Shown here piece after piece: positions 1-16,757 of a stretch of 61,995 nt of DNA (positions are counted from its first letter, which is position 1; each line of letters begins with the position of its first letter). This DNA comes from Eubacteriales bacterium (lineage in GTDB: Bacteria; Bacillota; Clostridia; Oscillospirales; CAG-272): contig JAZQUS010000045.1 of the NCBI GenBank assembly GCA_045631445.1, positions 1-61,995 on the forward strand, written 5' to 3'. The position numbers were made by a program, and so were the translations under genes. The notes under the pieces were generated by a model. It was given only the letters and a program-made list of their open reading frames with translations, had not been told where the DNA came from and searched no databases.

Positions 1-180
1 AGACTAACGGCTTTCTCGAAAAACTAAAACCTTGATTTTTCAAGTAATTTCTTTATGTTAACAAACGATGTTAAGCGGAGAAAGACGATTATTTGTTAAA
101 ACTTTGCTCTCCTCATCCACCACGCAAAGCGCGGTCCCCCTTCTCCGCTGGAGAAGGCACCGACAAATCAAAATTTGAAC
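1..180 (+). mobile_element. Palindromic repeat element A (left part outside window) of the shared-terminus repeat family
   Basis: Right terminus CCGACAAATCAAAATTTGAAC at 160-180, near-identical to four other copies; internal hairpin unit CCTCATCC...CCTTCTCCGCTGGAGAAGG at ~110-158. Confidence 0.7.
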
Positions 181-182
181 AA

Positions 183-899
183 TTAAATTTTTTCAAAAAT
201 TAGTTTTCTTCCCTCTTTGCGTAAGGATAGAAGTTCCGTTTCAAGAAGGAGCTTTTGCGCGCCCCAAAGCTTTCTTCCGTTTAATTTCAACGCTTTTGAC
301 AAAGTTGCGCGATCAAATTCACCGTCGGGCAGGATAGGAAAAAGTGCATTTTTGACATCGTCAATGCTATTTATGTAATCAAGTGAATATATCTCACCCG
401 CGACACGATCTACACTCGTTGCGCGGATCTTTTTTTGTTTTCCGTAGCCGTCGAGCAGTCTCACTTCGTCAATTTCCATGGACACAAAGCAAAACGAAAG
501 CTTTTCGTTTCCTAAAAATTCCTTTAAATAAAACAAATCGGCAATTCCGCTCGCAAGATTTTCGTGCTTTGAGGAGAGACGAGGCGCTTTTTTCATCTCA
601 CCTGACTCCTTATCAAGCCAAAATATTCTGCGATTTTTGGCAAGTGGGCAGACGACAATTATTTTATAATCAGTGTTTTCAAGGTAAAACTTTAATTTTT
701 TGACAAGGTTTCCAAGCTTTGCGGTTTGGATTTCATAAATCACACCGTTAGAACAAGCATCTGCAACAAAACGTCCGATTTTTACCTCGTGGCACGTTTC
801 GTCGGGGCAAAAATATGCCTTTAACGACGCGTGCAAGGAGCGTTCCATATACGTTGTTATTAAATTTTCCGTTTTTTCTATGGCAAAATTTTCTGACAT
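183..899 (-). CDS. Hypothetical protein, probable PD-(D/E)xK nuclease-like fold with C-terminal helical domain
   Basis: 238-aa ORF; E-x-SLH helix followed by VAD...YEIQT motif resembling restriction-endonuclease-like active sites. Confidence 0.55.
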   Translation of the reverse strand: MSENFAIEKTENLITTYMERSLHASLKAYFCPDETCHEVKIGRFVADACSNGVIYEIQTAKLGNLVKKLKFYLENTDYKIIVVCPLAKNRRIFWLDKESGEMKKAPRLSSKHENLASGIADLFYLKEFLGNEKLSFCFVSMEIDEVRLLDGYGKQKKIRATSVDRVAGEIYSLDYINSIDDVKNALFPILPDGEFDRATLSKALKLNGRKLWGAQKLLLETELLSLRKEGRKLIFEKI

Positions 900-945
900 A
901 TGCTTCTCCTTTCGCGTGAATTTACATATTATTGTATGGGGATAA

Positions 946-1498
946 TAAATTTAGTGAGAAGTTAGTTAAAATTAGGATTTTTTCGTTCTTTTTGAAAAAA
1001 GAACCAAAAACTTTTTAATCGTGGGAATGTATTAAAACCGCGCAAATCGTGATGTTTGATTTTAATCAAACATCACATAACGATTTTGCTCATATATTCG
1101 CAAAATCTGTGATTTGCTAATAAGTACGTAGCCGCGTGGATATCAAAATAGCATTGTATGAAAAAAATATCAAACATATCGGTGCGGGTGCACGGAGTGC
1201 CCCCCCTACGAATTTGCGTGTAGCCGTTTTGCTATCAAACGGCTATAGTTTAACAGAGTAAATTTTAGAAAATCACTATGTAAATAGTGGTTTTCGTAGT
1301 TTTGAAGGTTCGGCTCACACGTCGCGCTTGCGTGCAAGTGTGTGACGAAGTTTCAAAACCGATAATTTGTTCAAAAACAAATTATCGAAAATTTACGTCG
1401 AGTCAGCACAAACCCGCGATTAAAAGTTTTTTGCGAGCTTTTTTTCAAAAAAGCGAAAATCTTTACTTAACTAACTATTCGATAAATCAAAATTTGAA
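946..1498 (+). mobile_element. Composite palindromic element B (MITE/REPIN-like, non-autonomous)
   Basis: ~65-bp imperfect inverted arms (961-~1025 vs ~1412-1476), right terminus 1480-1498, single GTAG-type REP at 1184-1209; homologous to 6283-6833 and 16243-16757; left terminus degenerate. Confidence 0.8.
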
Positions 1499-1614
1499 AT
1501 TCAAACAAAATTTTTACACTTTTATTTTATCATATTTTGAGCAAATTATAAACAGGAGAATTGAAAATTTTAAGAAAAAATTGCAAAAAATTCTCTTGGG
1601 AGGTAAAAAACGAT

Positions 1615-2796
1615 ATGAAAAATATAAAAACAGGGCAAAAAATTGCGTTTTGTGGGCTTTTCTTCGTGATTTTGGCTCTTTTGGTGCTCGGATTTTACAA
1701 TGCGGCAATTCCAAAAACCGTTTCGTGTTTTTCGGGTGACGAGATTCCGAGTTATCTTGGTGCAACCTTTGAGGCGGACTCGATTGCAACCTCGACGAGT
1801 GGTGAAACGCGGGGTCAATACAAGCTTTTTGGCGCGATTCCCGTAAAAAGTGTGACGGTTTCACGCCTTGAGGATGTTAAGGTTTACGTTGGCGGTGTTC
1901 CCTTCGGTATCAAATTTTTGACCGAGGGCGTGAGTGTGGTCGGTTTTGAGGACGAAGCGTCAAACCCCGCTTACAAGGCCGGATTGCGCCTTTATGATAC
2001 CATTATCAAAATAAACGGCAAGAAAATTTCGGGCAATGCGGACGTTAGCGAGGCGGTTTCGGGCGGCGGTGAGATGAATATCACGTTTTTGCGCGCGGGC
2101 AAGGAAATGAGCTTAAAATTCACACCAAAATATTCCGAAAACGAGAAAAAATATACGCTCGGTGTTTGGCTCAAGGATAGCGGCGCGGGAATCGGCACGC
2201 TCACCTACGTTACTACCGACGGTGTTTTTGGCGGTCTTGGACACGGAATTTGTGATGGTGAGACGGGTGAACTCGTTCCAATCACAAGCGGAAGCGTGCT
2301 CGGTGTTACCTTAAACGGAATCGTAAAGGGCAAAAAGGGTGAGCCGGGTGAGCTCAAGGGCTATTTTAACTCGTCAAAGGTGGGTGCGATATACAAAAAT
2401 TCAGAGGTTGGCGTTTTCGGTGCATTGGCGGAAATTCCCGACGCCATCAAAGGAAAAACCTATTCAATCGGACTTAAAAACGAGCTTAAAGAAGGCAAGG
2501 CGACCATTCTATGCACTCTTGACGATAACGTCAGGCGCGAATACAGCATAGAAATTTCAAATATCAATCGCAACGCGGACGGAAACAAGTGCTTTAGCAT
2601 CAAAATCACCGACGAGCGCTTAATTAACGCGACGGGCGGTATTGTTCAAGGCATGAGCGGTTCGCCCATCATTCAAAACGGAAAGCTCGTCGGGGCGGTC
2701 ACTCACGTTCTTATTAACGATCCCTGCGCAGGATATGGCATTTTTATCGAAAACATGCTAAGGCAGAACGTTAAAGAGGAAAAAGCGGCGGCGTGA
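1615..2796 (+). CDS. spoIVB: SpoIVB peptidase (S55) with PDZ domain
   Basis: IVQGMSGSPIIQNGKLVGAVTHV catalytic motif, FGGLGHGICD motif, PDZ segment; GGAGGT RBS before ATG 1615. Confidence 0.95.
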   Translation: MKNIKTGQKIAFCGLFFVILALLVLGFYNAAIPKTVSCFSGDEIPSYLGATFEADSIATSTSGETRGQYKLFGAIPVKSVTVSRLEDVKVYVGGVPFGIKFLTEGVSVVGFEDEASNPAYKAGLRLYDTIIKINGKKISGNADVSEAVSGGGEMNITFLRAGKEMSLKFTPKYSENEKKYTLGVWLKDSGAGIGTLTYVTTDGVFGGLGHGICDGETGELVPITSGSVLGVTLNGIVKGKKGEPGELKGYFNSSKVGAIYKNSEVGVFGALAEIPDAIKGKTYSIGLKNELKEGKATILCTLDDNVRREYSIEISNINRNADGNKCFSIKITDERLINATGGIVQGMSGSPIIQNGKLVGAVTHVLINDPCAGYGIFIENMLRQNVKEEKAAA

Positions 2797-2800
2797 ATAC

Positions 2801-2831
2801 AAAAAATCCTTCCCGTTTGGGAAGGATTTTT
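2801..2831. terminator. Bidirectional intrinsic terminator between spoIVB and the DUF2752 gene
   Basis: AAAAAATCCTTCCC-GTTT-GGGAAGGATTTTT hairpin with A/T tails between convergent genes. Confidence 0.85.
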
Positions 2832-3167
2832 CTATAATAATTTGGAAATATAAAAAACAAAATTTATTATTAATACAAATAATACCGAAAAATATATCGC
2901 CTTTTTTCTCTTGAATTTAGATACATGAATCATCAACAAAGTCGCAACAAGCAATGGTAATGCAAATGGTTGATAGAATAAGTACCCCTCAGTATCTAGT
3001 TTTAATAATGAAATAATTGCTCTCGTGCAACCACAAGTTGGGCAAGGAATTTTGAAAACAAATAAAAACGGACACCCAATATTAAAAAAAGTTATTGCAA
3101 AAATAAATAGACATATAATAAAAACTAATAAAATATGTCTATTTATTATTTTGTTTGTTTTTCTCAA
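2832..3167 (-). CDS. DUF2752-like small membrane protein
   Basis: CPF...IPCPTCGCTRA motif between hydrophobic helices; TTG start overlaps the TGA stop of the upstream TM2 gene. Confidence 0.85.
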   Translation of the reverse strand: MRKTNKIINRHILLVFIICLFIFAITFFNIGCPFLFVFKIPCPTCGCTRAIISLLKLDTEGYLFYQPFALPLLVATLLMIHVSKFKRKKAIYFSVLFVLIINFVFYISKLL

Positions 3168-3517
3168 AGCATAAACATCAAATCATTGAAGTTCTTTTCT
3201 TTGGTTTTCTTTTGAATTGAGAACCAGTCAATGATGGTTAAAATACCACAAAAACCACCGGTTAAGAGTTTTAATACTCCCATACCTGTTTCTTTTAACA
3301 TAAAGCGGTCAACCCCTAATGTTCCCAAGAACAATGATACCAAAAGCAAGGTTGTAGGATCTTTAAATTCCATACAAGACACCAATGAAAACTTTGATTC
3401 ATCCATTTGATAAAGTTTTTCCTTCAAAAAAATCATTTTCTCAGCAGGAAAATACTTTTGATTGGTCATAATAAACATATCGACCTTTTGTTTGTCAACT
3501 AATACTTTTTCTTCCAT
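3164..3517 (-). CDS. TM2 domain-containing membrane protein
   Basis: KDPTTLLLVSLFLGTLGVDRFML...GVLKLLTGG...IDWF, typical TM2 signature. Confidence 0.9.
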   Translation of the reverse strand: MEEKVLVDKQKVDMFIMTNQKYFPAEKMIFLKEKLYQMDESKFSLVSCMEFKDPTTLLLVSLFLGTLGVDRFMLKETGMGVLKLLTGGFCGILTIIDWFSIQKKTKEKNFNDLMFML

Positions 3518-3537
3518 TTTTTCAGTCTCCTTTTAAA

Positions 3538-3588
3538 TATACCAAATTGGGATATTTGAATTATACCACTTTGGTATAATGTTGTCAA
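3538..3588. promoter_or_regulatory. Overlapping divergent sigma-A promoters with two palindromic operator candidates
   Basis: Minus: TTGACA(3588-3583)-17bp-TATAAT(3565-3560); plus: extended -10 TGnTATAAT (3572-3580); palindromes TATACCA-N3-TGGTATA at 3562-3578 and TATACCA-N3-TGGGATA at 3538-3554. Confidence 0.75.
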
Positions 3589-3626
3589 GACAATTTGCAA
3601 AAAAAGTCAAAAAAGAGGACAAAATA

Positions 3627-3833
3627 ATGAGATTTAGACTAAAGGAATTACGAAAGGAACGTAAAATTTCACAATTAAAACTCGCACTTGATTTGAATAT
3701 GAATCAAAATAGTATTAGCCGATATGAAAACATGGAGCGCGAGGCAGATTATGAAACACTCATCAAATTTGCAGACTATTTTAACGTTTCAATCGATTAT
3801 TTGCTAGGGAGAACCGATAATGAAAATAATTAA
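3627..3833 (+). CDS. XRE-family helix-turn-helix transcriptional regulator
   Basis: RLKELRKERKISQLKLA...ISRYENMERE...FNVSIDYLLGRT HTH_3 pattern; GAGG RBS before ATG 3627. Confidence 0.92.
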   Translation: MRFRLKELRKERKISQLKLALDLNMNQNSISRYENMEREADYETLIKFADYFNVSIDYLLGRTDNENN

Positions 3834-3878
3834 AAGACCTTTGTATTGGGTAACACAAAGGTCTTTTTGTTTTATATA

Positions 3879-4646
3879 TTAGTAGCTAATAAGTCCGCTA
3901 TCTGCTGTTACGATTGCGCCGCTTACAACTGCTGCTTCGTCGCTTGCGAGGAAGAGGGCGATGTCTGCGATTTCGAATGCTTCTGCGCTTCTTGTTCCGA
4001 AGTGCATTGCGAGCATTGCTGCGCCAAGACCCTTCTGGTCCGCAGTTGCGAAAAGTGCAGGATCTGTCATTTCTGTGTTGATACCCGCAGGACAGATTGC
4101 GTTGCAACGAATCTTATTGAGTCTATAGTTGAATGCTGTATTCTTTGTAAGACCGATAACCGCGTGCTTAGCCATTGTGTAAGCGCATCCACTCTTACCA
4201 CCGCAAAGGCCTGCGATGGAAGCGATGTTTACGATGTTACCGCCGTTTTCGTTTTCCATAAATACTCTAACTGCCTTTCTTGTAGCCCAAGCAGGACCGT
4301 AAACGTCAACCTTCATAAGACGTTCCATAAGCTCTGTATCAAGGTTTTCGGCAGGAGCGAAGTTGTCCATAAGACCTGCGTTGTTTACAAGAACGTCGAA
4401 CTTGCCGAACTTTTCGATTGCAAAGTCGATCATCTTTTCGTTTGTTTCTTCAAGAGAAATGTCACCTGCATATGCAACGATTTCACCTGCAAATTCCTTG
4501 CTCTGTTCTTCAAGAGCTGCAAGGCGCTCTGCTCTTCTTGCTACTGCAACAACCTTTGCGCCTTCTTTAGCAAAACGGAGAGCCACTTCTCTACCAACGC
4601 CACTTGATGCGCCTGTTACTACTACAACTTTGTTTTCTAATCTCAT
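3879..4646 (-). CDS. SDR-family NAD(P)-dependent oxidoreductase
   Basis: TGASSGVG, VNNAG, NIAS, YTMAK motifs; GGAGG RBS before ATG 4646; TTGACA(4720-4715)-17-TATAAT(4697-4692) promoter. Confidence 0.93.
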   Translation of the reverse strand: MRLENKVVVVTGASSGVGREVALRFAKEGAKVVAVARRAERLAALEEQSKEFAGEIVAYAGDISLEETNEKMIDFAIEKFGKFDVLVNNAGLMDNFAPAENLDTELMERLMKVDVYGPAWATRKAVRVFMENENGGNIVNIASIAGLCGGKSGCAYTMAKHAVIGLTKNTAFNYRLNKIRCNAICPAGINTEMTDPALFATADQKGLGAAMLAMHFGTRSAEAFEIADIALFLASDEAAVVSGAIVTADSGLISY

Positions 4647-4739
4647 TTTTGTTTCCTCCAATAATTAATATTATTTTTAATGAGCATATGTATTATATCA
4701 CATTGTTAAATATTTGTCAATATGTTTTTTTGTTGATTA

Positions 4740-4801
4740 AAATTGGGGATTTGTCGGAGAGATCGCACAAACTTGTAGGGGAGGGTCTTTTACAAGCCCT
4801 C
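4740..4801 (+). repeat. Truncated repeat element F: left terminus joined to a single GTAGGG REP
   Basis: AAATTGGGGATTTGTCGG then GCACAAACTTGTAGGGGAGGG, matching GCACAAATCTGTAGGGGAGGGG inside element C. Confidence 0.65.
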
Positions 4802-4807
4802 TTTTTG

Positions 4808-5404
4808 TTATTTTTCAATTTTTATTTTCCCCATTATACAATCAATAATTATTTTTGTGATGTTTTCAATACTTTCTTCGCAATTGTTGTCAAGCCACTC
4901 CATAACGATTGCGGTAATGCCCGAAAGGTAGAATTTCATAACGTATGCACGCTCGTTTTCGGGAAATTTAAATCTCGAAAGCACGGGACTAAATATATTA
5001 TCGAACATTTTTTGATAAACTCTATCAAACTCCATTGTGCCAAGGTGCTTGATTGACGTTTTGAATATCTGACGATTATCTTTGATAAAGGTCAGATACG
5101 GCGTTATATATTTGGGGGTTATGAAAAACAGCTCGTTTATATTGCACTCTTCAAGGTTTAATGATATGCTTTTTCTATCATTAGTGAAATAGGACAAAAA
5201 ACTATCAATCACATACCCTGTCGTTTCGCGCAAAAGATCGCAGGTGTTTTCATAATGAAGGTAAAAGGTTGATCGATTTACCCCTGCTTTTTCACAAATC
5301 TCGCGAATTGTGATGTACTCAAACTCCTTTTTCTCAAGCAAGGAAAGGAGTGCTTTATCGAATTTTTGTGCAGTATTGAAATATTTGCTTTCGTTCTTGT
5401 TCAT
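4808..5404 (-). CDS. TetR/AcrR-family transcriptional regulator
   Basis: LLSLLEKKEFEYITIREICEKAGVNRSTFYLHY HTH; GAGGAG RBS before ATG 5404. Confidence 0.93.
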   Translation of the reverse strand: MNKNESKYFNTAQKFDKALLSLLEKKEFEYITIREICEKAGVNRSTFYLHYENTCDLLRETTGYVIDSFLSYFTNDRKSISLNLEECNINELFFITPKYITPYLTFIKDNRQIFKTSIKHLGTMEFDRVYQKMFDNIFSPVLSRFKFPENERAYVMKFYLSGITAIVMEWLDNNCEESIENITKIIIDCIMGKIKIEK

Positions 5405-5425
5405 TTTTAGCACTCCTCTTCTCTT

Positions 5426-5776
5426 TTACTGTTTAGCGATTTCTTCTGCCAATTTTACGATATCGTATGCGTACTTTTTCTTGCCCTTTTCAAGCATTTT
5501 CTTATAGATGGGATAATTCACACCGCATCCGATAAATCCGAGAATGCCGATAATAATGCCCAACACCATCCAAGTTGTGCCGCCGCCGATGACCTGCATT
5601 GAAAGGCACATTCCCGTTCCTGCAACAAGTGACGAAATGATGCCAAATGCATAAGTAAATACGGTTGCGGGCATTTTTGCCTTTGCGTCAAGCTTTTTAA
5701 GTGCCACGATTTTTGAATTGTTTTTGGGCGCGTACTCCTTTGCTATGGATTCCGCATAAATTTTGTCTGTGTTCAT
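5426..5776 (-). CDS. Conserved small membrane protein of unknown function (two TM helices)
   Basis: K-x-x-AL-K-K-LD-x-K-A-K-x-PA motif then two Gly-rich hydrophobic helices; GGAG RBS before ATG 5776. Confidence 0.75.
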   Translation of the reverse strand: MNTDKIYAESIAKEYAPKNNSKIVALKKLDAKAKMPATVFTYAFGIISSLVAGTGMCLSMQVIGGGTTWMVLGIIIGILGFIGCGVNYPIYKKMLEKGKKKYAYDIVKLAEEIAKQ

Positions 5777-5910
5777 AATTTTTAATCTCCTTTTTGTTTT
5801 GTGGCTTAATTTTAGCATACGAAAAGAAGAATTTGAACAACAAGATTGTGGAAAAACGTGGAGTTTTGGGGAGTTTTATTATAGTATCATAAGTTTATTT
5901 GTTTTTTTAA

Positions 5911-6087
5911 GTGAAATATTCGACGTTGTCGAATGTGAAATAATGTTCTTCACACATTGTGAAATATTGCTCCTTCGTCGCAATGTGAAATGAAATTTGC
6001 TCACATTCGCGTCAGCGAATATTTCACGCGCCGCAGGCGTATTTCAAAGCAAAGCTATTTCACTTGCCCGCAGGGCAAATTTCGTTG
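5911..6087. repeat. Array of short hairpins spaced by GTGAAAT (x4) then ATTTCAC-like (x4) linkers
   Basis: GTGAAAT at 5911, 5935, 5959, 5985; inverted ATTTCAC/ATTTCAA/ATTTCAC/ATTTCGT in 6021-6086; most spacers are self-complementary. Confidence 0.75.
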
Positions 6088-6115
6088 AAAAAAGCACGCT
6101 TTCGCGTGCTTTTTT
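6088..6115 (-). terminator. Intrinsic terminator after tRNA-Arg
   Basis: AAAAAAGCACGC-TTTC-GCGTGCTTTTTT immediately 3' of the tRNA CCA. Confidence 0.85.
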
Positions 6116-6116
6116 C

Positions 6117-6194
6117 TGGCCCGCCCTGAGGGATTTGAACCCACGACCAACGGAATCGGAATCCGGTACTCTATCCGGGCTGAGCTAAGGGCGG
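6117..6194 (-). tRNA. tRNA-Arg (CCG)
   Basis: Cloverleaf: acceptor CCGCCCT/AGGGCGG, anticodon loop TTCCGAT, T-loop TTCAAAT, encoded CCA. Confidence 0.92.
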
Positions 6195-6201
6195 AGAGGG
6201 G

Positions 6202-6271
6202 GAATAAAGAATAATGAATAATGAATAAAGAATAATGAATAATGAATAATGAATAATGAATAATGAATAAT
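6202..6271. repeat. Heptamer tandem repeat (GAATAAT/GAATAAA) x10
   Basis: Ten contiguous 7-bp units, eight GAATAAT and two GAATAAA. Confidence 0.95.
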
Positions 6272-6282
6272 TTAAAAGCGCG

Positions 6283-6833
6283 TTCAAATTTTGATTTGTC
6301 GGAAAGTTAGTTAAGTGAAAATTTTCGCTTTTTTGAAAAAAAGAACCAAAAAACTTTTAAACGTTGGGGAAAACAAATTTCGCGCAATGCGCGTGACTCG
6401 CAATCACACGCGCTCGTCACACTCGTTTTTGTTGCACAGATGCAACAAAAACCGCGCATTGCTACTTTGCACATAGCCGTTTTGATAGCAAAATGGCTAC
6501 GCACAAATCTGTAGGGGAGGGGTTTTCCCTCCCGCCAAAAATGAAATTAGTTTGAGTTCATAAGCGGGTGCACGGAGTGCCCCCCTACAAAGTCGGCACA
6601 TAACCGTTTTGATAGCAAAATGGCAACGTTTGGCATTAGCAAATCACAGATTTTCGAACTGCCTGCCAACAGTGAGAAAATCGTTATGTATTGTTTGATT
6701 GAAATCAAACAATACGATTTGCGCGGTCTTAATTCAACACCTACGATTAAAAAGTTTTGGGGTTATAGGGGGATTTTTCAAAATCCCCCTAAATCTTTTC
6801 TTAACTATCTTCTCCTCGATAAATCCACAATTT
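6283..6833 (-). mobile_element. Composite palindromic element C (MITE/REPIN-like, non-autonomous)
   Basis: Inverted-orientation homologue of element E; termini at 6283-6302 and 6812-6833; GTAG REP doublet at 6511-6535 and 6564-6588 flanked by repeated TAGCCGTTTTGATAGCAAAATGGCTA-type hairpins. Confidence 0.85.
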
Positions 6834-6882
6834 ATCTTTCAAGAAAAGCCCCCAATAGATATGGGGGCCTTGCGTATAATAT

Positions 6883-7830
6883 TTACATCAAAAGGGCAGC
6901 AGCACCAAGGAGTCCTGCGCTATTTTCAAGCTCTGCGATGAGAATGGGCACACGAGGGCCTTTATCACCTGCGTATATTTCCTTATCAACGAGCTTCTGC
7001 AAGGGAACGATAAGATTATCACCCTGCGCACAAACTCCACCGCCGAGAAGAATTACTTCAGGACGGAAGATATTTGCATAGTTTACAAGTCCACAAGCAA
7101 GGTGCTCTATGTAAGAATCAACAACTTCTTTTGCATAAGCATCAACAGGAGCATAATCGAACACGGTTTTTCCACAAACCATATCAAGCGAACCACATTC
7201 CCACATTTTTGAATCAGGATGTGCTTCCATTGCTCTTTTTGTATCGCGGATAAGAGCCGTTGCTGAAGAATACGCTTCAAAACATCCCTTTCTGCCACAA
7301 GAACACTGTTCCCCGCCCTTCACAATAACAATATGACCAAGTTCTGCGCCGGCTCCCATATTACCTTCAACAAGCTTACCATCGATAACGATACCACCAC
7401 CAACACCTGTGCCAAGAGTGATCATAACTGCGCTATTATAGTTACGAGCCGCGCCAAATTTAACCTCACCAAGAGCTGCAACGTTTGCGTCATTACCTAT
7501 CTTAACCTTGATTCCGCCAAGAAGACGTGACAATTCATCACAAATTCTGAAATTTTCCCAACCGAGATTGTTTGCATAAACAACGTTACCTTTGGCAGAA
7601 TCAATCATACCGGGTGAACCGATGCCGAGTCCTTCAACATCATTCACAGTAAGTCCCTGCCTTTCAAGAAGCATATTTGCAAGCTTTGCAATGTTAGCCG
7701 CAACACCCTTGTCACCCTTCTCAACCTCTGTAGGTGTTTTATCAGAAACAAGAATTTCTCCGCTTTCATTAACGATTCCGCCCTTGATAAATGTTCCACC
7801 AAGGTCTATTCCAATATAATACTTTGCCAT
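6883..7830 (-). CDS. glcK: ROK-family glucokinase
   Basis: GIDLGGT, GIGSPG, NDANVAALGE, TLGTGVGGG, ELGH, CSCGRKGCFE motifs. Confidence 0.92.
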   Translation of the reverse strand: MAKYYIGIDLGGTFIKGGIVNESGEILVSDKTPTEVEKGDKGVAANIAKLANMLLERQGLTVNDVEGLGIGSPGMIDSAKGNVVYANNLGWENFRICDELSRLLGGIKVKIGNDANVAALGEVKFGAARNYNSAVMITLGTGVGGGIVIDGKLVEGNMGAGAELGHIVIVKGGEQCSCGRKGCFEAYSSATALIRDTKRAMEAHPDSKMWECGSLDMVCGKTVFDYAPVDAYAKEVVDSYIEHLACGLVNYANIFRPEVILLGGGVCAQGDNLIVPLQKLVDKEIYAGDKGPRVPILIAELENSAGLLGAAALLM

Positions 7831-9466: not shown

Positions 9467-9479
9467 GTTTCTCTCGCGC

Positions 9480-9590: not shown

Positions 9591-9701
9591 AATGTTTTGC
9601 GCGGGATTGGGTCGCATTCTTGTTTTTATTTATCCTTCAACCATTGACTTTTTTACGATTTTGTGATACCATTAATTGACTTTATTATAAAGGAGAAAAA
9701 T

Positions 9702-10970
9702 ATGAAAGAAAAGCTCAAAAAATTCTTCACATCTAAAAAATTTATTATTACCACAAGTATTATTGCAGGAATTTTGCTTCTCTGCACTTTAGTTGGTCCT
9801 CGCATAGTTCTCATGGCAGTTCGTCAGCCAAAGACAGAAGCTCATAAATATAGTGAGTATTTCTATAACACATACGAGGAAGTCCGTACTCATCTTGCTC
9901 AAAGGGTTGAAAAACTCAAAGAAAGCGGAATTGAAGTTGAGCACAAAACTCACGCAATCGATGAGAGTGACAACCTTTATATAGATAATATCTATCTCCC
10001 CGCAAGTGAAGAAAACACTAACCTTATCGTTCTCACAACCGGTGTTCATGGTATTGAGGGTTATATCGGCTCCGCTATGCTTGATGTCTTCTTTGAGGAT
10101 ATTTATCCCACCATCGACACGGATAAAACAGGTATTTTGATTGTAGCTAACGTAAATCCTTACGGTATGAAATATATGCGTCGCTATAACGAAAACAACG
10201 TAGACCTCAACAGAAACTTTATTGAGGATTGGAGCACATTCGATCTCTCCTCTAACAAGGAATATCCTAAGGTTGATAAATTCCTTCAGCCCACAGGTAA
10301 AATGGGCAACGCATTCTGGCACGAGGTAGGTTTTTATCTCTCACTCGCTAAAGAAGCTATTTTCACAGGTGCAGACACAATTTCCGATGCACTCCTCACA
10401 GGTCAATACGAATATGCAGAAGGTGTTTATTACGGCGGCAACGGTGACGAAGCATCAACAACATATTTAAAAGGTGTTTTTGCAGATTGTATCGATGGTG
10501 AATATGAAAATATCATTCACGTGGATATCCACTCCGGCTACGGTCCAAGATACAACATGGTGATTTTCAATTCCGTTCAGGATTTGACAACCGAAGCAGA
10601 AGCCAAGGAAATGCTTCAATATGATTATATTATAGCCCAAGATTCTGAGGATTTCTATGTAACTTACGGTGACACAACCGACTATTTCTATCGTTTACTC
10701 AAGAGTAAAAACTCCGATAAATCTCTTTATTCCACCTGCTTTGAGTTTGGTACAATTGGTGACGGTTTCTTCGATTCTATTCTTTCTCTTAAATACACAG
10801 TTGACGAAAACCGTCAGCATTGGTATCCAACAACCAACAAAACCACTGCCGAGGTTGTTCGTCAAAATTATCTTGAATTGTTCTATCCAACAGAAACTGA
10901 TTGGAGAACAAAAACAATCGAGGATTTCACAAAAGCAATGACAGGCGTCCTTAACGCAAAACTTAAATAA
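9702..10970 (+). CDS. M14-family zinc carboxypeptidase-like protein (DUF2817-like), membrane anchored
   Basis: TGVHGIEG, RRYNENNVDLNRN, DIHSG, FEFG motifs; N-terminal TM; AAGGAG RBS before ATG 9702. Confidence 0.85.
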   Translation: MKEKLKKFFTSKKFIITTSIIAGILLLCTLVGPRIVLMAVRQPKTEAHKYSEYFYNTYEEVRTHLAQRVEKLKESGIEVEHKTHAIDESDNLYIDNIYLPASEENTNLIVLTTGVHGIEGYIGSAMLDVFFEDIYPTIDTDKTGILIVANVNPYGMKYMRRYNENNVDLNRNFIEDWSTFDLSSNKEYPKVDKFLQPTGKMGNAFWHEVGFYLSLAKEAIFTGADTISDALLTGQYEYAEGVYYGGNGDEASTTYLKGVFADCIDGEYENIIHVDIHSGYGPRYNMVIFNSVQDLTTEAEAKEMLQYDYIIAQDSEDFYVTYGDTTDYFYRLLKSKNSDKSLYSTCFEFGTIGDGFFDSILSLKYTVDENRQHWYPTTNKTTAEVVRQNYLELFYPTETDWRTKTIEDFTKAMTGVLNAKLK

Positions 10971-11017
10971 ATCTCAAAAGGAGCATTGAATCACAATGCT
11001 CCTTTTATATCGCAAAT

Positions 11018-11255
11018 AAATTGTGATTTATCGGGGAGATAATTATAATCGGCATTTCGCGCAAGATCCTTCGGTCGCTTGGGCTCCCTCGAGGATGACG
11101 CACCCATGTGCGTCGCGCGAGATATAGTGAAATTAAGGTTCCGCGCGTCATTCTTGAACGAAGCGTAAGCGTAGTGAAGAATCTTGCGCGGCAGGTGAAT
11201 AAAGGATTTTACCATTTTCATTCAACTAACTTCCCCGATAAATCAAAATTTGAAC
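11018..11255 (+). mobile_element. Palindromic element D: family termini enclosing a GTCATT/GGATGAC-type REP doublet
   Basis: Left AAATTGTGATTTATCGGGGA (11018-11037), right CCCCGATAAATCAAAATTTGAAC (11233-11255); CGCGCAAGAT/ATCTTGCGCG perfect 10-bp arms at 11058 and 11181. Confidence 0.8.
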
Positions 11256-11292
11256 AAATCAAGGGGGCTTGCGCCCCCCATTGTTTTTATAC

Positions 11293-11385
11293 TTATCTGT
11301 TGCAGCAGCAGGTGATCAGAAGAAGCGCAATGATAAGAAGCCAGATATAATCGTTGTCAAAAATGTTGCAAAGGCAGTTGTTCAT
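11293..11385 (-). CDS. Small Cys-rich membrane peptide (30 aa, MNNCLCNIFDNDYIWLLIIALLLITCCCNR), not in the ORF track
   Basis: Hand-translated; ACGGAG RBS, ATG 11385, TAA 11295-11293, followed by GGGGGC/GCCCCC terminator at ~11261-11280. Confidence 0.7.
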   Translation of the reverse strand: MNNCLCNIFDNDYIWLLIIALLLITCCCNR

Positions 11386-11503
11386 AAATATACTCCGTTT
11401 CAATTTAGTAAGCAGGCATTTTTCCCTGCTTCGATATCATTTTATGATGCAACAGAAAATATGTTAAAGAAAAGGTCGGCTCCATTTCGAAACCGACCTA
11501 ATT

Positions 11504-12166
11504 TTATTCAAGATAAAGGGCATCTGCATCCAAAAACGCGTGTGTATTAAGTGAATTATCCGTAGGAATCACTCTCTTAGCACCGCAATCGCGACACTTA
11601 ACAAGAACATCGTTTGCACGCATCTCAAAGCCGTATTTTTCCTCGTCTATCTCACCCGAACGTTCACACTTGCAGAATATTTTATTCTCCGCTTCAAGCT
11701 CAGAAAGAACAAAAATTACCGCTTGTGTAAGCTCGGAATCAAGCGCCTCGTCGTCGTTCTCGGTATTGGCATTCTTGAAAGCAGAAAGGTCACTAATTCC
11801 ATTCTGCTCCATAAGCTCAAGAAGCTTCAATTCGCTTTTAGCAAGATTTGCCTTAACGTAATCCATTTCTCCAAGGAAGCACACGTCAAGATCGGAATAA
11901 GGACACCCAAGGAAGAATTCCTCTTTACCGAAAAACACCTTTGGACTTACCAAAAAGCTATGTGGCTTAGGACAAATGATACAAGGAACGGTAAGTCTTA
12001 TTTTTCCGTCACTCTGCTTTACTATGGTCATTTCACTTCCACCGCAATCACATTTAAGCTTGATCATTGGTGCGGATAATGTGAAAACGTCAATTATACT
12101 CATAACACCCGCGCCACAATGTGGACAGCGGTATGCTATAGTGGTTTGTTTCTTTTCAAGTACCAT
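11504..12166 (-). CDS. Conserved hypothetical multi-Cys (zinc-ribbon-like) protein
   Basis: CPHC, CDC, CIIC-x2-H, CKC, CRDC motifs; AGGTGA RBS before ATG 12166. Confidence 0.75.
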   Translation of the reverse strand: MVLEKKQTTIAYRCPHCGAGVMSIIDVFTLSAPMIKLKCDCGGSEMTIVKQSDGKIRLTVPCIICPKPHSFLVSPKVFFGKEEFFLGCPYSDLDVCFLGEMDYVKANLAKSELKLLELMEQNGISDLSAFKNANTENDDEALDSELTQAVIFVLSELEAENKIFCKCERSGEIDEEKYGFEMRANDVLVKCRDCGAKRVIPTDNSLNTHAFLDADALYLE

Positions 12167-12219
12167 AAAATCACCTATCAAAATGGCACGGACGAGCCGT
12201 GCCATTTTTATTTCATTAA

Positions 12220-14085
12220 TTATTTATTGAAAACCTTTTCAAAGATGCTATCATTGATAGTTACGTTGTGAGTAAGTGCTTCGAACCAAGCATCCATTTC
12301 TTCGTTTGTTGCACCATCATGAGCAGTGGGTCTCCAAGCGGGCTCGCCTGTTTCACCGCCGTAGTACATAATGTGCCAACCGTACTGTGTCTTAACAAGA
12401 CCGATTTCACCTTCTGTTTCTGCAGCATAGAGCCAATCCTCGAATTCTGCAACCATCTGACCCTTAGCTACGTCTTCATAGAATACGTTGGAGTCATGTG
12501 TGTTCTTGCCGAATTCTTCGAATTTTTCCTTGGAAATCTTACCATCAACAAGCTGTGCCTTGATTTCTTCGTAAAGCTTTTCAGCAGCTTCCTTAGCAGC
12601 AGCTTCAGTCTTGTAGTATGTGCCTGTTGTATCAGAAGAATCAACCTTGAAGAGAATATGTCCAACATCACGAAGGCTATATTCATCTCTATGAGCAGCT
12701 TCTGTTACGAAATAAAGTGACATTGAATACTTACCAATGTTCTTATCTGCATCAGCTGTATATTCTGTTTCGTCAAAGAAGTGATCGTTTACAGGAGCAT
12801 TTGTTCCCTTTTCTTCGCCTTCCTTGTATTCAATACCGTACTGATCCTTAACTCCTGCGAAAAGGAACTTACCAAGGTCATTTTCAAGTGTGTAAGTAAC
12901 TGTCTTTGTATTATCTGTAATAACCTTCTTAAGAGCTGTAATCAAAGACTTAGCAAATGTTTCCTTAGCTTTTTCCCACTTTGTCTTTGTTGCTGTTTCA
13001 TCAGCTGTTGTTTCAGGTGTGGATTCTTCTTTATCAAGGTCATCCTTGCCTGCAACAGTTGCAGCAATAACCTTATCCTTCAACTCTGCCTTGTAAGCTT
13101 CAAGCTCCTCTGTAGAGGGCTTATCACCGGAAGCAAAGTTCTTAACTGCTGTATCATATGTGGACTGGAATGCAGAATCATAGTTGAATTCAAGGAACAT
13201 TGTCTTGAACTCTTCAAGAGTCTTTGCAGTTGCAAGCTTATCAAGCTTTTCCTTATCTGCAATCTTCTGAAGGTCATTTGTCTTCTTAGCAGCTTCTTCA
13301 GCAGCAGCTACAGCATCCTTGTATTCCTGACTTTCCTTGCCGCCTTCATACTTCTTTTCATCAATCTTTTCAGCAGTTACTGTGCTTGAAAGTGTGAAAA
13401 TGATATACTCAGCAGAAATGAATTCGTTAAGGTGTTCACCAAAATACTTATCCTCGCGAGCTTCGTCAACCGCGTCAAACTTTCTACCGTGAACGATTTC
13501 ATAGTAATCGGAAGCGATGTGTTCGATAACAAGTGCCTTCTTAAGATCATTAACGTTAATGTACTGACCAAAATACTGACGGATATATCCCTTAAGGCTC
13601 ATGCTATTTGTCTTTGCAGCTTCTCTAAGAGATTCGATGGATTCCTTTGCATACTTTTCAGCCTCTGCTTCAAGCTCACTGTAGTTAACCTCAGGGTCAA
13701 CCATAGCTTCTTCACAATACTTAAGGTATGTGGAAACTGTGCTCTTTGTACCGTTTACAAAGTAATCATAGTATGTTGTCTTACCATCAGTTGTTAACTG
13801 GCTGCTAAGAGGAGCATTGGGGTCGAACTTAATCATACCGAACATGATGTAGTAGTAATACTGTGAGTACCAGTTCTGGTAATAAGAGTTTGCATAGTAG
13901 GACATCATAGAACCGTTAACCTTGAAGTTCTCGGATGATGCGCCCTTGCGGATACGAACGAAAAGTCCCGTACCAGCCAAAAGTGAAACTACAAGTCCGA
14001 ACAAGATAGCTATTGTTACTATCAAAGCGGCAAGAGCAGGTCCACTCATTTTTTTCTTTGTGTTTGTGGGTTTAATCTGTGCCAT
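12220..14085 (-). CDS. Membrane-anchored PrsA/SurA-like peptidylprolyl isomerase (parvulin type)
   Basis: N-terminal TM; GHILFK, KGQMVAEFEDW, GLVKTQYGWHIMY parvulin motifs. Confidence 0.85.
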   Translation of the reverse strand: MAQIKPTNTKKKMSGPALAALIVTIAILFGLVVSLLAGTGLFVRIRKGASSENFKVNGSMMSYYANSYYQNWYSQYYYYIMFGMIKFDPNAPLSSQLTTDGKTTYYDYFVNGTKSTVSTYLKYCEEAMVDPEVNYSELEAEAEKYAKESIESLREAAKTNSMSLKGYIRQYFGQYINVNDLKKALVIEHIASDYYEIVHGRKFDAVDEAREDKYFGEHLNEFISAEYIIFTLSSTVTAEKIDEKKYEGGKESQEYKDAVAAAEEAAKKTNDLQKIADKEKLDKLATAKTLEEFKTMFLEFNYDSAFQSTYDTAVKNFASGDKPSTEELEAYKAELKDKVIAATVAGKDDLDKEESTPETTADETATKTKWEKAKETFAKSLITALKKVITDNTKTVTYTLENDLGKFLFAGVKDQYGIEYKEGEEKGTNAPVNDHFFDETEYTADADKNIGKYSMSLYFVTEAAHRDEYSLRDVGHILFKVDSSDTTGTYYKTEAAAKEAAEKLYEEIKAQLVDGKISKEKFEEFGKNTHDSNVFYEDVAKGQMVAEFEDWLYAAETEGEIGLVKTQYGWHIMYYGGETGEPAWRPTAHDGATNEEMDAWFEALTHNVTINDSIFEKVFNK

Positions 14086-14207
14086 TTTTTATCTCTCCTT
14101 TATAGGCATTAATAGGGTTATTATATATTCATTTTGTTATCACATTTTGAACAAATTATGAACAATGTGTGAATTGTATAGTTATTCTACACTTTTATAC
14201 AATTTTC

Positions 14208-16193
14208 TTAAATGTTCATAATAATTGGCAAAATCATTGGTCTGCGTTTGGTTTTGGAATAGACATATTTTGCAAGGTCGTCCTTCAACTTTGTCTTAAG
14301 TGCAGTTCTATCTGCAAAGCGAGTGTGATCAAGATAATCCTCGATAGTTTTTTCCGCAACTTCCTTGATTTCGTCCATAAGCTCCTCCGCCTCGCGAACG
14401 TAAACAAATCCGCGAGAAACTACGTCGGGACCCGACATAAGAAGCTTTGCATCAATATCAACTCCCGCTACCACAACGATAAGTCCGTCCTGTGAAAGAT
14501 GACGTCTGTCACGAAGCACTATATTACCGATTTCACCAACACTATTGCCGTTGACGAGTGTTTTGCCCGCAGGCACGCTACCAACAAATTTAGCACCCGA
14601 AGCGCCCAATTCAAGAATCTTACCAATATCGGAGATAAAAATATCTCGCTCGTCCATTCCCATTTCAAGCGCAAGCTCACGATTTGCATTAAGGTGACGG
14701 TATTCTCCGTGAATGGGCATAAAATATCTCGGCTTGAGAAGTGCCTGCATCAATTTAAGCTCCTCTTGACACGCGTGTCCTGATACGTGAACGCTTACAA
14801 GCGCATCGTGAAGCACGGTAACTCCATTTTTAGTAAGTTCGTTGATAATTCTGCTTATCAATTTTTCGTTGCCGGGAATTGGGCTCGAAGAAAGAATTAC
14901 CACGTCGTTTCTGCCGATGCTCACCTCTCGGTGATCGGAAAACGCCATTCTGTAAAGCGCACTCATCGGTTCTCCCTGTGAACCGGTTGTTACAATCGTT
15001 AATTGATCCGGACGATATCTCTTGATTTCAGAAATATCAATCAAAACACCTTCGGGAATATTCATATAACCAAGTTCGGTAGCAGCACCGATTACATTCA
15101 GCATACTGCGTCCCGTGATGGCAACCTTTCTTCCGTGTCGCGCACTTGTATCAATAACCTGCTGAACTCGATGAACATTCGATGAGAAGGTTGCGATAAC
15201 AATTCTCTTATCCTTTTGAGTTGAGAAAATATATTCAAGTGATTTTCCAACCTTGCGCTCACTCGGTGTAAAGCCAACGCGCTCAGCATTAGTGCTTTCG
15301 CACATAAGAAGCTCAATCCCCTCTTTTCCAAGCTCACCAAGGCGCGTGATGTCCATTACCTCTCCGTCAATTGGGGTGAGGTCGAGCTTGAAGTCACCTG
15401 TATGGAAAATCTTGCCAACAGGCGTATCAATAGAAAGCGCGCACGCGTCTGCAATGGAGTGGTTAACGTGAATAAATTCAACCGCAAAATTAGAACCAAT
15501 TTTCACAGTCTCACCTGCGCTAACCACCTTTAAATCCGCATTAAAGGGCAATTTGTGTTCAAGTAGCTTGTTTTTAATAATACCGAGTGTTAAAAGCGTA
15601 CCGTAAACGGGCACGTTCACCTCTCGAAGAAGATAAGGAATACCGCCAATATGGTCCTCGTGTCCGTGAGTTAGAACGATTGCGCGTACCTTATCCGCAT
15701 TATCACGAAGATAGGTAAAATCAGGAATTACAAGATCAATTCCGAGCATATCCTCATCTGGAAAACCGAATCCACAATCAATAACAATGATGTCATCTCC
15801 GCACTCGATGGCGGTGATATTCTTACCTACCTCGTTAAGTCCACCAAGAGGAATTATACGCACCTTTGCAGAAGGATTTTTAACAATAGTGGGGATGAAT
15901 TCACGCTTCTTTTCCTTTTTGCCAAAATGATCATTTTTCTGCTTTTTCTGTGTTTTTTTCTCGTTTTTAGGTTTGCTTTCAACCTTTTTATTCACTTCTT
16001 TTTCTTTAACCTTTTTAGGGTTCTTTTCAATGCTTTCCAAAACTTCATTTTGGAGTTTTGCGAGTTTTTCTCTCACCTTTTGCTTGGATGCCTGTTTTCT
16101 TTTGCCACCCTTTTTGCGATTGTGCACGGGGGCTTTTATCTTTTCAACATTTTCTGAATTTTCAGTGTTGTGTTTTTTAGCCAATAGTAACAC
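14208..16193 (-). CDS. rnj: Ribonuclease J with long basic N-terminal extension (start may be TTG at 16184)
   Basis: IIPLGGLNEVGKN, THGHEDHIGG, HTGDFK, HVSGHA, PIHGE motifs. Confidence 0.96.
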   Translation of the reverse strand: MLLLAKKHNTENSENVEKIKAPVHNRKKGGKRKQASKQKVREKLAKLQNEVLESIEKNPKKVKEKEVNKKVESKPKNEKKTQKKQKNDHFGKKEKKREFIPTIVKNPSAKVRIIPLGGLNEVGKNITAIECGDDIIVIDCGFGFPDEDMLGIDLVIPDFTYLRDNADKVRAIVLTHGHEDHIGGIPYLLREVNVPVYGTLLTLGIIKNKLLEHKLPFNADLKVVSAGETVKIGSNFAVEFIHVNHSIADACALSIDTPVGKIFHTGDFKLDLTPIDGEVMDITRLGELGKEGIELLMCESTNAERVGFTPSERKVGKSLEYIFSTQKDKRIVIATFSSNVHRVQQVIDTSARHGRKVAITGRSMLNVIGAATELGYMNIPEGVLIDISEIKRYRPDQLTIVTTGSQGEPMSALYRMAFSDHREVSIGRNDVVILSSSPIPGNEKLISRIINELTKNGVTVLHDALVSVHVSGHACQEELKLMQALLKPRYFMPIHGEYRHLNANRELALEMGMDERDIFISDIGKILELGASGAKFVGSVPAGKTLVNGNSVGEIGNIVLRDRRHLSQDGLIVVVAGVDIDAKLLMSGPDVVSRGFVYVREAEELMDEIKEVAEKTIEDYLDHTRFADRTALKTKLKDDLAKYVYSKTKRRPMILPIIMNI

Positions 16194-16242
16194 TTCCTTT
16201 CTGTATGTAAATATATAAGTTAGTTGAGTTGATTTGTAAGTT

Positions 16243-16757
16243 AAATTGGGATTTATCGGGGAGTTAGTTAAGTAAAGATTTTCGTTCTTTTTGAAAAAAG
16301 AACCAAAAACTTTTTAATCGTGGGTATTAAATTAATCCGCGCAAATCGTAATGTTTGATTGAAATCAAACATTACATAACGATTTTCTCACTGTTGGCAG
16401 GCAGTTCGAAAATCTGTGATTTGCTAATGCCCAACGTAGCCATTTTGTTATCAAAACAGTTTATATCTGTAGGGGAGGGGTCTTCCCTCCCGTTGATATA
16501 ATGCGGGCGCACGGAGTGCTCCCCTACGAAGATTGTTCTTAGACATTTTGCTATTAAAACGGCTATGTGCAGAGTAGCAAAGCGCAGTTTCATTGTTTTC
16601 TCGAAAACAAAGAAACATTTGTGACGAGCGCGAAGAAGTGAGTCACGCGCATTGCGCGGTCTAAATTATTACCCACCTATAAAAGTTTTTTGCGAGCTTT
16701 TTTTCAAAAAAGCGAAAATTTTTACTTAACTAACTACTCGACAAATCAAAATTTGAA
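16243..16757 (+). mobile_element. Composite palindromic element E (MITE/REPIN-like, non-autonomous)
   Basis: Termini 16243-16262 and 16739-16757; ~65-bp inverted arms; GTAG REP doublet 16469-16492 and 16503-16527. Confidence 0.85.

Follow-up and report, generated by a model that had tools for sequence, protein, structure and literature searches.

The 61,995-nucleotide stretch of DNA analysed here (the window) carries copies of a new repeat family, of a kind broadly known from bacteria, in which two unlike ends, left (L) and right (R), enclose a variable interior. We consider it about an even chance that these L..R units are genus-specific, non-coding, non-autonomous elements, similar to MITEs, BOX and BIMEs, which have functional asymmetric ends, are mobilised in trans and are shuffled by recombination. 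The window lies in G000, a 1.77-Mb draft MAG of an uncultured ruminant-gut Clostridia genus. The R end, CGAYAAATCAAAATTTGAA, was found five times in the window (0.06 exact matches expected from shuffles), and five sites of the L end, (T)AAATTGGGATTTAKCG, were also present. All ten ends had been pointed out in an earlier note, which placed two of the R ends, at 160 and 11233, 1 and 3 nt away from their actual positions. The copies in the window are the following.

Element A, 1..179, + strand: 3' portion of a "class A" element truncated at the contig start; R at 161-179; interior a CCTTCTCC..GGAGAAGG hairpin adjoining the R end.
Element B, 947..1498, + strand: main-family copy; R at 1480-1498; L end degenerate, with a deletion of about 9 nt; one REP (..GGGTGCACGGAGTGCCCCCCCTAC) at about 1184-1209.
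Element F, 4741..4803, + strand: lone L at 4741-4756, then a degenerate GTAG REP from 4778; no R end.
Element C, 6283..6832, - strand: main-family copy of 550 bp; R at 6283-6301, L at 6817-6832; 78-nt REP doublet at 6511-6588 between two copies of hairpin H.
Element D, 11018..11254, + strand: "class D", 237 bp; L at 11018-11033, R at 11236-11254; interior of GGATGAC/GTCATTC-type hairpins, without a GTAG REP.
Element E, 16243..16757, + strand: main-family copy of 515 bp; L at 16243-16258, R at 16739-16757; central GTAG REP doublet at 16469-16527 between two copies of hairpin H.
Last element, 61889..61995, + strand: L at 61889-61904 and a class-A-like start, cut by the contig end.

The subterminal sequence of element A also adjoins R ends on C30, C53, C80 and C67, and class D recurs at C81 and in G005 (L130), a better-assembled congener. 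Strong folds were predicted for element D (-56.4 kcal/mol, z = -8.6) and for element E (-116.5 kcal/mol, z = -11.7), in which L and R pair with each other. At 949-953 of element B, a related strain in run X7 contains additional letters, which we read as a fuller L end. In one metagenome strain, the stretch 4731-4819 around element F is swapped for 66 other letters.

Genome-wide, 145 R ends with at most two mismatches were found (approximately none expected), and looser matching yielded 158 R and 154 L ends. These ends form 66 complete L..R pairs of 60-686 bp. Among the 180 unpaired ends, 122 are no more than 700 nt from a contig end, and 122 of the 296 contig ends fall within L/R elements. The family makes up approximately 3% of the G000 sequence, and approximately 40% of the assembly breaks are inside it. 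In G005, 15 of 16 R ends are partnered by an L end 66-993 bp away, and the exception is a 53-bp R-R mini-palindrome. No ORF was evident between paired ends in G000, in G005 or among the G014 matches listed; the ORF calls that overlap 14 of the 66 G000 elements are a product of the crude ORF finder only. The most similar full-length copies share at most 93% identity. This lack of near-identical copies is weak evidence against the preferred reading, because the assembly would break on them.

The two ends have the cores AAATTGGGATTTA (L) and AAATCAAAATTTGAA (R). Of 16 positions, 14 are shared by L and the reverse-complemented R, as in the terminal inverted repeats of a short non-coding element; the two are told apart by a TT in the latter where L has GG or GT (approximately 90% of the 66 pairs). 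The ends are thus oriented, as the earlier note had proposed. With strict end patterns, 32 of 33 elements were L+R, one was R+R and none was L+L. Core positions are 94-100% invariant, and the end consensus is identical across 18 species. No compensatory covariation was detected in the L:R stem of the 66 pairs: at the inner end, 16 cases combine L13 G with a facing R2 A, and 15 combine R3 C with a facing L12 A. These changes suggest that the ends are read by sequence recognition and not as an L:R stem. Read from the sequence, each end contains an AAAT-N4-ATTT mini-palindrome, which is typical of dimer binding sites. The ends are AT-rich and have no GTAG or CGTC beside a GC-rich hairpin, whereas the REPs nested in the cargo do have GTAG next to one.

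The interiors are mosaics of hairpin modules, with module alleles, and fall into one main family and at least 14 small classes, bearing out the idea that one family of termini encloses several unrelated interiors, some with GTAG REP doublets of differing classes. Their orientation relative to L/R varies (235 pairs against 606); for example, positions 75-398 of E37 match 342-20 of E32. Both orientations were seen between different copies, and in the assembled contigs of the runs not at one locus.

The GTAG REP doublets are secondary inserts in the carriers. At least 15 carriers, no two of them more than 93% alike, share the 78-nt doublet at 100% identity, and its position is always at hairpin H. 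Doublets are missing from 420-bp copies, and many carriers have no REP. In addition, REPs abut the outer boundaries exactly (TTTGAA|GGCGGGTGCACGG.. and ..CACAATTT|GTAGGGG). The doublets appear to have been inserted later, in a site-specific manner, either at hairpin H or at an outer boundary. A search for Y1/HUH genes, suggested earlier, revealed four RAYT-like Y1 transposase loci in G000 (match to NF047646 with E = 1e-19 and 4e-16, below the 80-bit cut-off), each of which contains a REP pair within the coding sequence. None of them is flanked by L/R in this genome. Their internal REPs match genomic REP classes and not L/R, and REPs like the internal pairs of the two intact genes also occur away from carriers. 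The earlier proposal of a shuttle that captures and disperses REPs was not supported; the doublets look like later arrivals with RAYT-like enzymes of their own. Its alternative, an insertion hot spot, is partly consistent with the exactly abutting REPs, the bidirectional cargo and the replacement of cargo at fixed sites (see below).

RAYT-like genes were present in 16 of 18 L/R-positive and in one of four L/R-negative congeners, and their copy number does not follow that of L/R. The RAYT-like family and its REPs are common in other Oscillospirales, which are without L/R except for two MAG loci (L040 and L114), perhaps from congeners. This REP/transposase system is not previously described in this Clostridia group; in a word search, the main text of a 2013 GTAG survey named no Clostridia or Firmicutes family (PMC3733652).

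The L/R family is restricted to one sub-clade of one genus, in which 18 of 22 congeners were positive, with 4 to 125 copies. Outside the genus it is effectively absent (one copy each in 4 of 300 other genomes of the order). Phages and plasmids gave no match, and Rfam at gathering thresholds detected nothing on the elements. At orthologous sites in different species, the ends are 84-100% identical, the flanks 53-73% and the interiors, which diverge or are replaced, 33-56%. Presence also differs between species: of the 16 sites in G005, four have clean empty counterparts in G000, which lack the complete L..R unit together with TTTGAA. All three filled sites compared between G000 and G005 keep position and polarity and have a different cargo class. 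The site of element E (16243) is occupied in eight species, with different cargo, and has no recognisable element in five repeat-bearing species and in three of the four repeat-free ones, those keeping the upstream gene. Thus, as in BOX- and BIME-type repeats, end modules are kept and a variable modular interior differs between genomes at a given locus. None of the three outcomes that the earlier note had named as contradicting its reading was observed: the termini do pair genome-wide, the interiors are of more than one class, and presence varies at orthologous loci. Among strains of approximately 95% identity, no empty allele was found in Logan contigs of six metagenomes, whose contigs simply break at element ends; this counts against the reading we prefer.

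No target-site duplication (TSD) was found: for k = 2-8, flank matches never exceeded the level expected from shuffles, whatever the boundary offset. This agrees with the earlier impression from the window, and flank logos revealed no direct repeat. The sole apparent matches were the AAATT common to both ends. In the left flank, (G)(A)T was only weakly preferred (45, 61 and 71%). TTTGAA or AAATT as a pre-existing target was rejected: approximately 60 AAATTTGAA sites outside R ends had no repeated empty-site context, and TTTGAA is missing at empty orthologous sites. Uptake signals were also rejected, the ends being intergenic and seen only as pairs or as orphans at contig breaks; a few loose matches with three mismatches within coding sequence look like chance. 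Orientation relative to GC skew was 26:30. This absence of strand bias argues against a classic lagging-strand mechanism of the IS200/IS605 type, and neither the conserved tetra- or pentanucleotide target nor the replication orientation bias of IS200/IS605-derived PATEs was observed. The elements sit just 3' of terminators, with a T-rich left and an A-rich right flank. Convergent gene pairs are enriched around them (19 of 66), and element orientation did not correlate with that of neighbouring genes.

In the search for an autonomous partner, which had a limit of 3 kb in G000, the longest L..R pair measured 686 bp in G000 and 993 bp in G005, and no such partner appeared among the G014 matches listed (100 of 140). 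Likewise, no enzyme gene or parent IS with the same ends was found in this non-exhaustive search of draft MAGs (G000, G005 and the listed G014 matches), which also counts against the preferred reading. An IS481-like DDE transposase, the only multi-copy one found through paralogy, was rejected as partner: it has different ends of its own and targets REP loops.

According to the preferred reading, each end is probably a sequence-specific site bound by a putative trans-acting enzyme that would need one L and one R and leave no TSD. Because of the missing TSD, an HUH/Y1 enzyme or a site-specific recombinase would fit better than a DDE transposase. The interior would be dispensable cargo, made of linked hairpin modules whose arrangement three processes keep changing. 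Recombination or gene conversion among the approximately 150 copies, and between an element's own inverted arms (65-100 bp), would result in module swaps, inversion and deletion down to the minimal hairpins of 53-66 bp. Nested GTAG REP doublets would be inserted, most likely by the resident RAYT-like Y1 transposases, and tandem expansion would add to the variation. That the elements move in trans, that a protein recognises their ends and that the mosaicism arises from recombination is what we infer from the features described above. Two properties are less easily accommodated: a simple TIR transposon does not predict bidirectional cargo, and with ends more conserved than flanks, a purely selfish fixed element would need repeated conversion, re-insertion or host selection.

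The same two properties would fit if L and R were instead recombination sites bounding approximately 150 fixed intergenic "sockets", one of each per socket, in which a putative site-specific recombinase or HUH enzyme inverts or exchanges hairpin cargo and which only rarely arise anew, by analogy perhaps with invertible switches, pdif modules and cassette exchange. Position and polarity kept under changing cargo (at the three shared sites and at the one followed across eight species), the strict L+R heterotypy, the dimer-site-like palindrome in each end, minimal forms resembling empty sockets and the stability of sites among strains all fit. We nevertheless regard it as a possible but doubtful explanation: no candidate recombinase was found, homologous recombination between the inverted arms explains inversion and swaps without a dedicated enzyme, and sites differ between species, the four empty ones implying gain or loss of entire sockets. 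Its narrower form, in which the ends are att-like sites and the sockets permanent, with RAYT-spread REPs among the flipped and swapped cargo, appears unlikely.

A model in which the genome's own RAYT-like Y1 (HUH) transposases move the elements in folded single-stranded form, which would make the carriers an extended REPIN, agrees with the missing TSD, the long hairpin into which every element folds (z = -8.6 to -11.7), the four RAYT-like loci, their co-occurrence with L/R among congeners and the REPs inside and abutting the elements. But published TnpA(REP) systems cleave using a GTAG tetranucleotide (PMC8266576), which L/R lack; the same enzyme family and its REPs occur in other Oscillospirales without L/R, copy numbers do not track, and neither compensatory stem variation nor strand bias was seen, making this explanation quite improbable. 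We think it very unlikely that the elements have lost their mobility and that the host retains them in a structural or regulatory role, for example as sites for protein binding, as insulators or as signals for RNA processing or stability next to terminators and in 5' UTRs. The conserved ends, the location 3' of terminators with its flank bias and convergent pairs, the stability among strains and one G005 copy between a promoter and an RBS are in line with such a role. Against it are the lack of correlation with gene orientation, presence/absence at orthologous sites without visible consequence, extremely variable interiors, the range of copy numbers among congeners and a single RNA run, in which depth was compatible with copy number and showed no enrichment beyond it.

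Among known repeats, the closest parallels differ in defined ways. BOX elements (boxA-boxB(n)-boxC) of the Firmicutes Streptococcus pneumoniae and S. suis are intergenic, modular and of similar size (67-637 bp), have conserved end modules that are unlike each other and form a stem together, an interior that differs between strains at fixed loci and no known cognate transposase (PMC3049150), and are apparently dormant among close strains. However, they show no sequence similarity to L/R elements, their end modules measure 50-60 bp and not 16-19 nt, and their interior is one repeated module, whereas L/R interiors comprise many unrelated classes and nested REP doublets in either orientation. BIMEs/REPINs with RAYT/TnpA(REP) are likewise intergenic mosaics with GTAG REP hairpins in inverted pairs (PMC3333891, PMC3116915, PMC8266576); they too share their genome with RAYT-like Y1 genes, persist vertically at orthologous sites and have no TSD. 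The L/R ends are, in contrast, not GC-rich hairpins, REPs are just one kind of cargo, the RAYT-like genes hold the REP pair within the coding sequence instead of flanking it, and the host belongs to the Clostridia. Classical MITEs (RUP, Correia/NEMIS, Nezha and bcr1) share short, AT-rich, non-coding intergenic sequences, terminal inverted repeats, strong hairpin potential, high copy number and presence/absence polymorphism (PMC3184786). L/R elements differ from them in lacking a TSD and a found IS with matching ends, and in having obligatory unlike ends and cargo replaced at fixed sites. ERIC/IRU sequences of Enterobacteria are long imperfect palindromes in intergenic, transcribed regions, with size variants from internal insertions at fixed points and copies at orthologous sites across species; unlike L/R, ERIC is a single family of approximately 127 bp that is not known to have interchangeable interiors or unlike ends.

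The combination of obligatory unlike ends, no TSD, bidirectional cargo and cargo replacement at conserved sites is unusual for a bacterial repeat and poses a testable question, transposition versus in-place recombination. If the ends were indeed att-like, they would form a system in which cassettes of regulatory or structural DNA are exchanged across the whole genome. The REP/RAYT system extends REP biology into the Oscillospirales, including the cultured Ruminococcus flavefaciens. Recognition of the L/R family would improve assembly and annotation across a whole clade of ruminant-gut Clostridia and would stop single copies from being reported as candidate structured RNAs.

G000, the draft genome bin to which the window belongs as contig C45, comprises 1.77 Mb in 148 contigs at 39% GC, with an estimated contamination of 3.6%. 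Its relatives are MAGs from the ruminant gut, classified as Eubacteriales, Oscillospiraceae, or Clostridia (all genomes compared here are draft MAGs), and metagenome runs containing the window sequence were of bovine and other gut origin. The right end (R) of the hairpin elements, CGAYAAATCAAAATTTGAA, has five exact matches in the window, at 161, 1480, 6283 (minus strand), 11236, and 16739, while dinucleotide shuffles predict 0.06. Left ends (L) lie at 4741, 6817 (minus strand), 11018, 16243, and 61889. This confirms the five right ends and the left ends described in the earlier note, and the sequences agree.

Across G000, 145 R ends were found at up to two mismatches, and slightly looser patterns gave 158 R and 154 L ends. 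The pairing of termini proposed in the earlier note holds genome-wide, with 66 complete L..R units of 60 to 686 bp (mean, 378 bp). Among the unpaired ends, 122/180 lie within 700 nt of a contig end in the direction of the expected partner; therefore, breaks inside the L/R repeat account for about 41% of all contig ends. We estimate approximately 150 copies in G000, corresponding to roughly 3% of the genome. In the better assembled congener G005 (30 contigs), an L end was located 66 to 993 bp from 15 of the 16 R ends, the remaining R end belonging to a 53-bp R-R mini-palindrome. No evident ORF was seen in the G005 L..R intervals.

The logo of L is (T)AAATTGGGATTTAKCG and that of R is CGAYAAATCAAAATTTGAA; thirteen core positions of L and fifteen of R are conserved at 82 to 100%, mostly at 92% or more. 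Compared with the reverse complement of R, L has GG or GT in place of TT at two internal positions and also differs at the outermost three; the resulting G/A mismatches are retained in 60 of 66 pairs. With strict end patterns, 32 of 33 elements were L+R, one was R-R, and none was L-L, so end heterotypy is maintained. The inner polymorphic positions L13 (T/G), R1 (G/T), and R3 (T/C) vary without compensation, which argues that each end would be read as sequence and that the L:R helix is probably not the selected thing. No target-site duplication was detected at any boundary offset of the elements, in line with the earlier note, which had seen no clear one.

Several unlike interior classes within one pair of ends had also been proposed, and clustering of the interiors bore this out, giving one main family (39 complete copies of 380 to 665 bp) and at least 14 small classes, the smallest form being a 60-bp minimal hairpin. 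Main-family interiors are chains of hairpin modules, with several alleles per module, stems kept, and free combination of left and right subterminal alleles. The predicted fold of element E (16243-16757) reached -116.5 kcal/mol versus -55.7 kcal/mol for shuffles (z = -11.7); for element D (11018-11254), z was -8.6. Cargo occurs in both orientations with respect to L and R: among interior pairs with more than 50% coverage, 606 matched better on the same strand and 235 on the opposite strand (for example, positions 75-398 of element E37 equal 342-20 of E32).

Main-family copies of about 420 bp are without a REP doublet; in longer copies, including C and E of the window, a GTAG REP doublet is flanked on both sides by the central hairpin H, TAGCCATTTTGCTATCAAAACGGCTA. 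A 78-nt doublet is 100% identical across at least 15 loci, every time in the hairpin H context, and the elements carrying it are at most 93% alike, a value to be read with the knowledge that short-read assemblies hide near-identical copies. REPs are also found directly against the outer edge of an end, with no base in between. One such junction, TTTGAA|GGCGGGTGCACGG.., recurs in a tandem array on contig C19; on contig C29, a REP lies directly outside an element end (..CACAATTT|GTAGGGG). The REP doublets are secondary in the L/R family. On contig C97, the unit of H plus the 78-nt doublet is present three times in tandem, and C19:21347-21437 consists of head-to-tail repeats of a unit of REP, 26 nt, and R end. 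These tandem module arrays suggest that modules were multiplied by unequal recombination.

The R end was detected in 18 of 22 congeners, with 4 to 125 copies each. It was absent from all 18 genomes in a first sample of other genera, and a further set of 300 genomes, from 153 genera of the order, had the exact R end in only four, as a single copy each. The four congeners without R are the most divergent, with 73 to 79% identity in the protein of window 16805-18232 versus 88 to 93%. Searches of phage and plasmid collections gave no match, and no Rfam family was found on the elements.

Upstream of the window gene starting at 16805, an element is present in eight species, with its R end 27 to 28 nt from a conserved promoter-like ttgtcaatactaat. 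In the three species with contigs reaching L, this end is at the same place past the upstream terminator. Both class and length vary between the interiors, which measure 515 bp in G000, about 370 bp in G018, and about 390 bp in G003; that of G014 (205 bp) has a REP doublet. No recognizable element was found at this site in five repeat-bearing species, nor in three of the four repeat-free species (those with the conserved upstream gene); short sequences there in G004 and G019 may be element remnants. Presence/absence differences at orthologous sites, whose lack would have spoken against the earlier note, were found: at 4 of 16 G005 sites, G000 is cleanly empty and lacks the entire L..R, TTTGAA included, with boundaries that are not base-exact because intergenic sequence is too divergent between species. 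Three sites are filled in both genomes, at the same position and polarity and with different cargo. Identity at shared sites was 84 to 100% in the ends, 53 to 73% in the flanks, and 33 to 56% in the interiors. In strains about 95% identical (six metagenomes), the window elements occupy the same sites, and the sole polymorphism was a replacement at 4731-4819.

The flanks are T-rich on the left and A-rich on the right, with only a weak (G)(A)T preceding L, and among the examples inspected, many ends are preceded by an intrinsic terminator at 8 to 25 nt. Element orientation was unrelated to that of neighbor ORFs, which, like the other gene calls, came from our own crude ORF caller (<E<, 20; >E<, 19; <E>, 11; >E>, 11), and had no relation to GC skew (26:30). 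A small ORF at window 11299-11391 (minus strand; MNNCLCNIFDNDYIWLLIIALLLITCCCNR), which may encode a small membrane peptide, has its own terminator, the end of which is 8 nt away from R of element D. Between a tRNA gene (6120-6194, minus strand) and the R end of element C, about 10 tandem copies of a 7-nt repeat (GAATAAT/GAATAAA) lie at 6202-6271. Adjoining this tRNA gene are two adjacent, opposed matches to the Rfam Gut-1 RNA (RF01706) at 5909-5996 (plus strand; 50.1 bits) and 6016-6087 (minus strand; 66.7 bits). One G005 L..R element, with a tandem 45-nt repeat as cargo (C4:100551-100925; locus L117, 1652-2026), sits between a -10 box and a ribosome-binding site and should therefore be part of the 5' UTR of the downstream gene; the G000 orthologue of this gene is without it.

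A Pfam Y1_Tnp scan followed by a protein scan detected RAYT-like (Y1/HUH transposase) genes in 16 of 18 repeat-bearing versus one of four repeat-free congeners.

RAYT-like genes and IS481-like copies in G000
C39:20886-21443, minus strand, RAYT-like, intact
C135:3218-3760, minus strand, RAYT-like, intact
C23:2235-2752, plus strand, RAYT-like, one frameshift
C7:19549-19030, minus strand, RAYT-like, one frameshift
C73:4530-5910, IS481-like (rve), inserted in REP loop
C26:30760-31479, IS481-like (rve), inserted in REP loop
C91:1720-2413, IS481-like (rve), inserted in REP loop

The two intact proteins matched NCBIfam REP_Tyr_transpos with E = 1e-19 and 4e-16, below the 80-bit cut-off, and Pfam Y1_Tnp weakly. 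Unexpectedly, two GTAG REP hairpins, inverted relative to each other, flank the HUH motif within each G000 RAYT-like reading frame; those in C23 and C7 are the two most abundant REP classes of G000. Congeners' genes have such internal pairs too, as do 68 of 80 homologous loci sampled across many genera of Oscillospirales, including cultured Ruminococcus flavefaciens; the stems differ by lineage and covary within a gene, and the internal REPs correspond to REP classes dispersed in the respective genome. In four genomes of the R. flavefaciens group (three flavefaciens strains and Ruminococcus sp. YRD2003), the REP located inside three of these genes had 30 to 51 occurrences per genome versus 0 for a control pattern. 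No description of a REP pair inside a RAYT-like coding sequence was found in the REP/RAYT literature searched. The frameshifts of the C23 and C7 copies (C23:2300-2345 and C7:19470-19510) are less than about 30 nt apart in position, the former at an A AAA AAC run resembling a -1 slippery heptamer; these copies may be pseudogenes or cases of programmed frameshifting.

The IS481-like rve transposase (380 aa) has three G000 copies, each in a GTAG REP loop (GTAGGGACAGGCGTCC/..TGTCAAGAGTAAG..), with ends unrelated to L/R. ISKpn1, like IS1397, is a REP-targeting IS. As a REP-targeting IS in Clostridia, the element resembles IS1397-type targeting (PMC1525189). Of the transposase genes that the earlier note proposed to look for between the same termini, RAYT-like Y1 genes are present, but neither these nor the IS481-like genes of G000 are flanked by L/R.

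Most economically, the L/R elements would be a trans-mobilized, nonautonomous family whose copies recombine intensively. Recombination would occur between copies and between the 65- to 100-bp inverted arms of each element, and the family would be a favored insertion site for REP doublets, most likely mobilized by the RAYT-like enzymes. The descriptive core of the earlier reading (ends, pairing, and varied cargo) stands; candidates for the REP-mobilizing enzymes that it invoked are present as RAYT-like genes. That these enzymes also move the L/R elements themselves we consider quite improbable, since published TnpA(REP) enzymes need GTAG for cleavage (PMC8266576), a motif missing from L/R, and the RAYT-like family is widespread where L/R is absent. 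The absence of a target-site duplication points away from a DDE enzyme. Unlikely, too, is that L and R serve as the recombination sites of "sockets" fixed in place; we keep this explanation alive because cargo replacement at conserved sites, cargo in both orientations, and strict L+R pairing are not predicted by a simple MITE.

The kinds closest to the trans-mobilized family preferred here are pneumococcal BOX elements (PMC3049150), BIMEs and REPINs (PMC3333891, PMC3116915), and classical MITEs. Because the target-site duplication that defines MITEs was looked for and is absent, we file the family as a modular intergenic repeat outside every named family. Its ends are identical across species, obligatorily unlike, and conserved in place beyond their surroundings. 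Selection clearly acts on the ends, and the cargo is free to vary.
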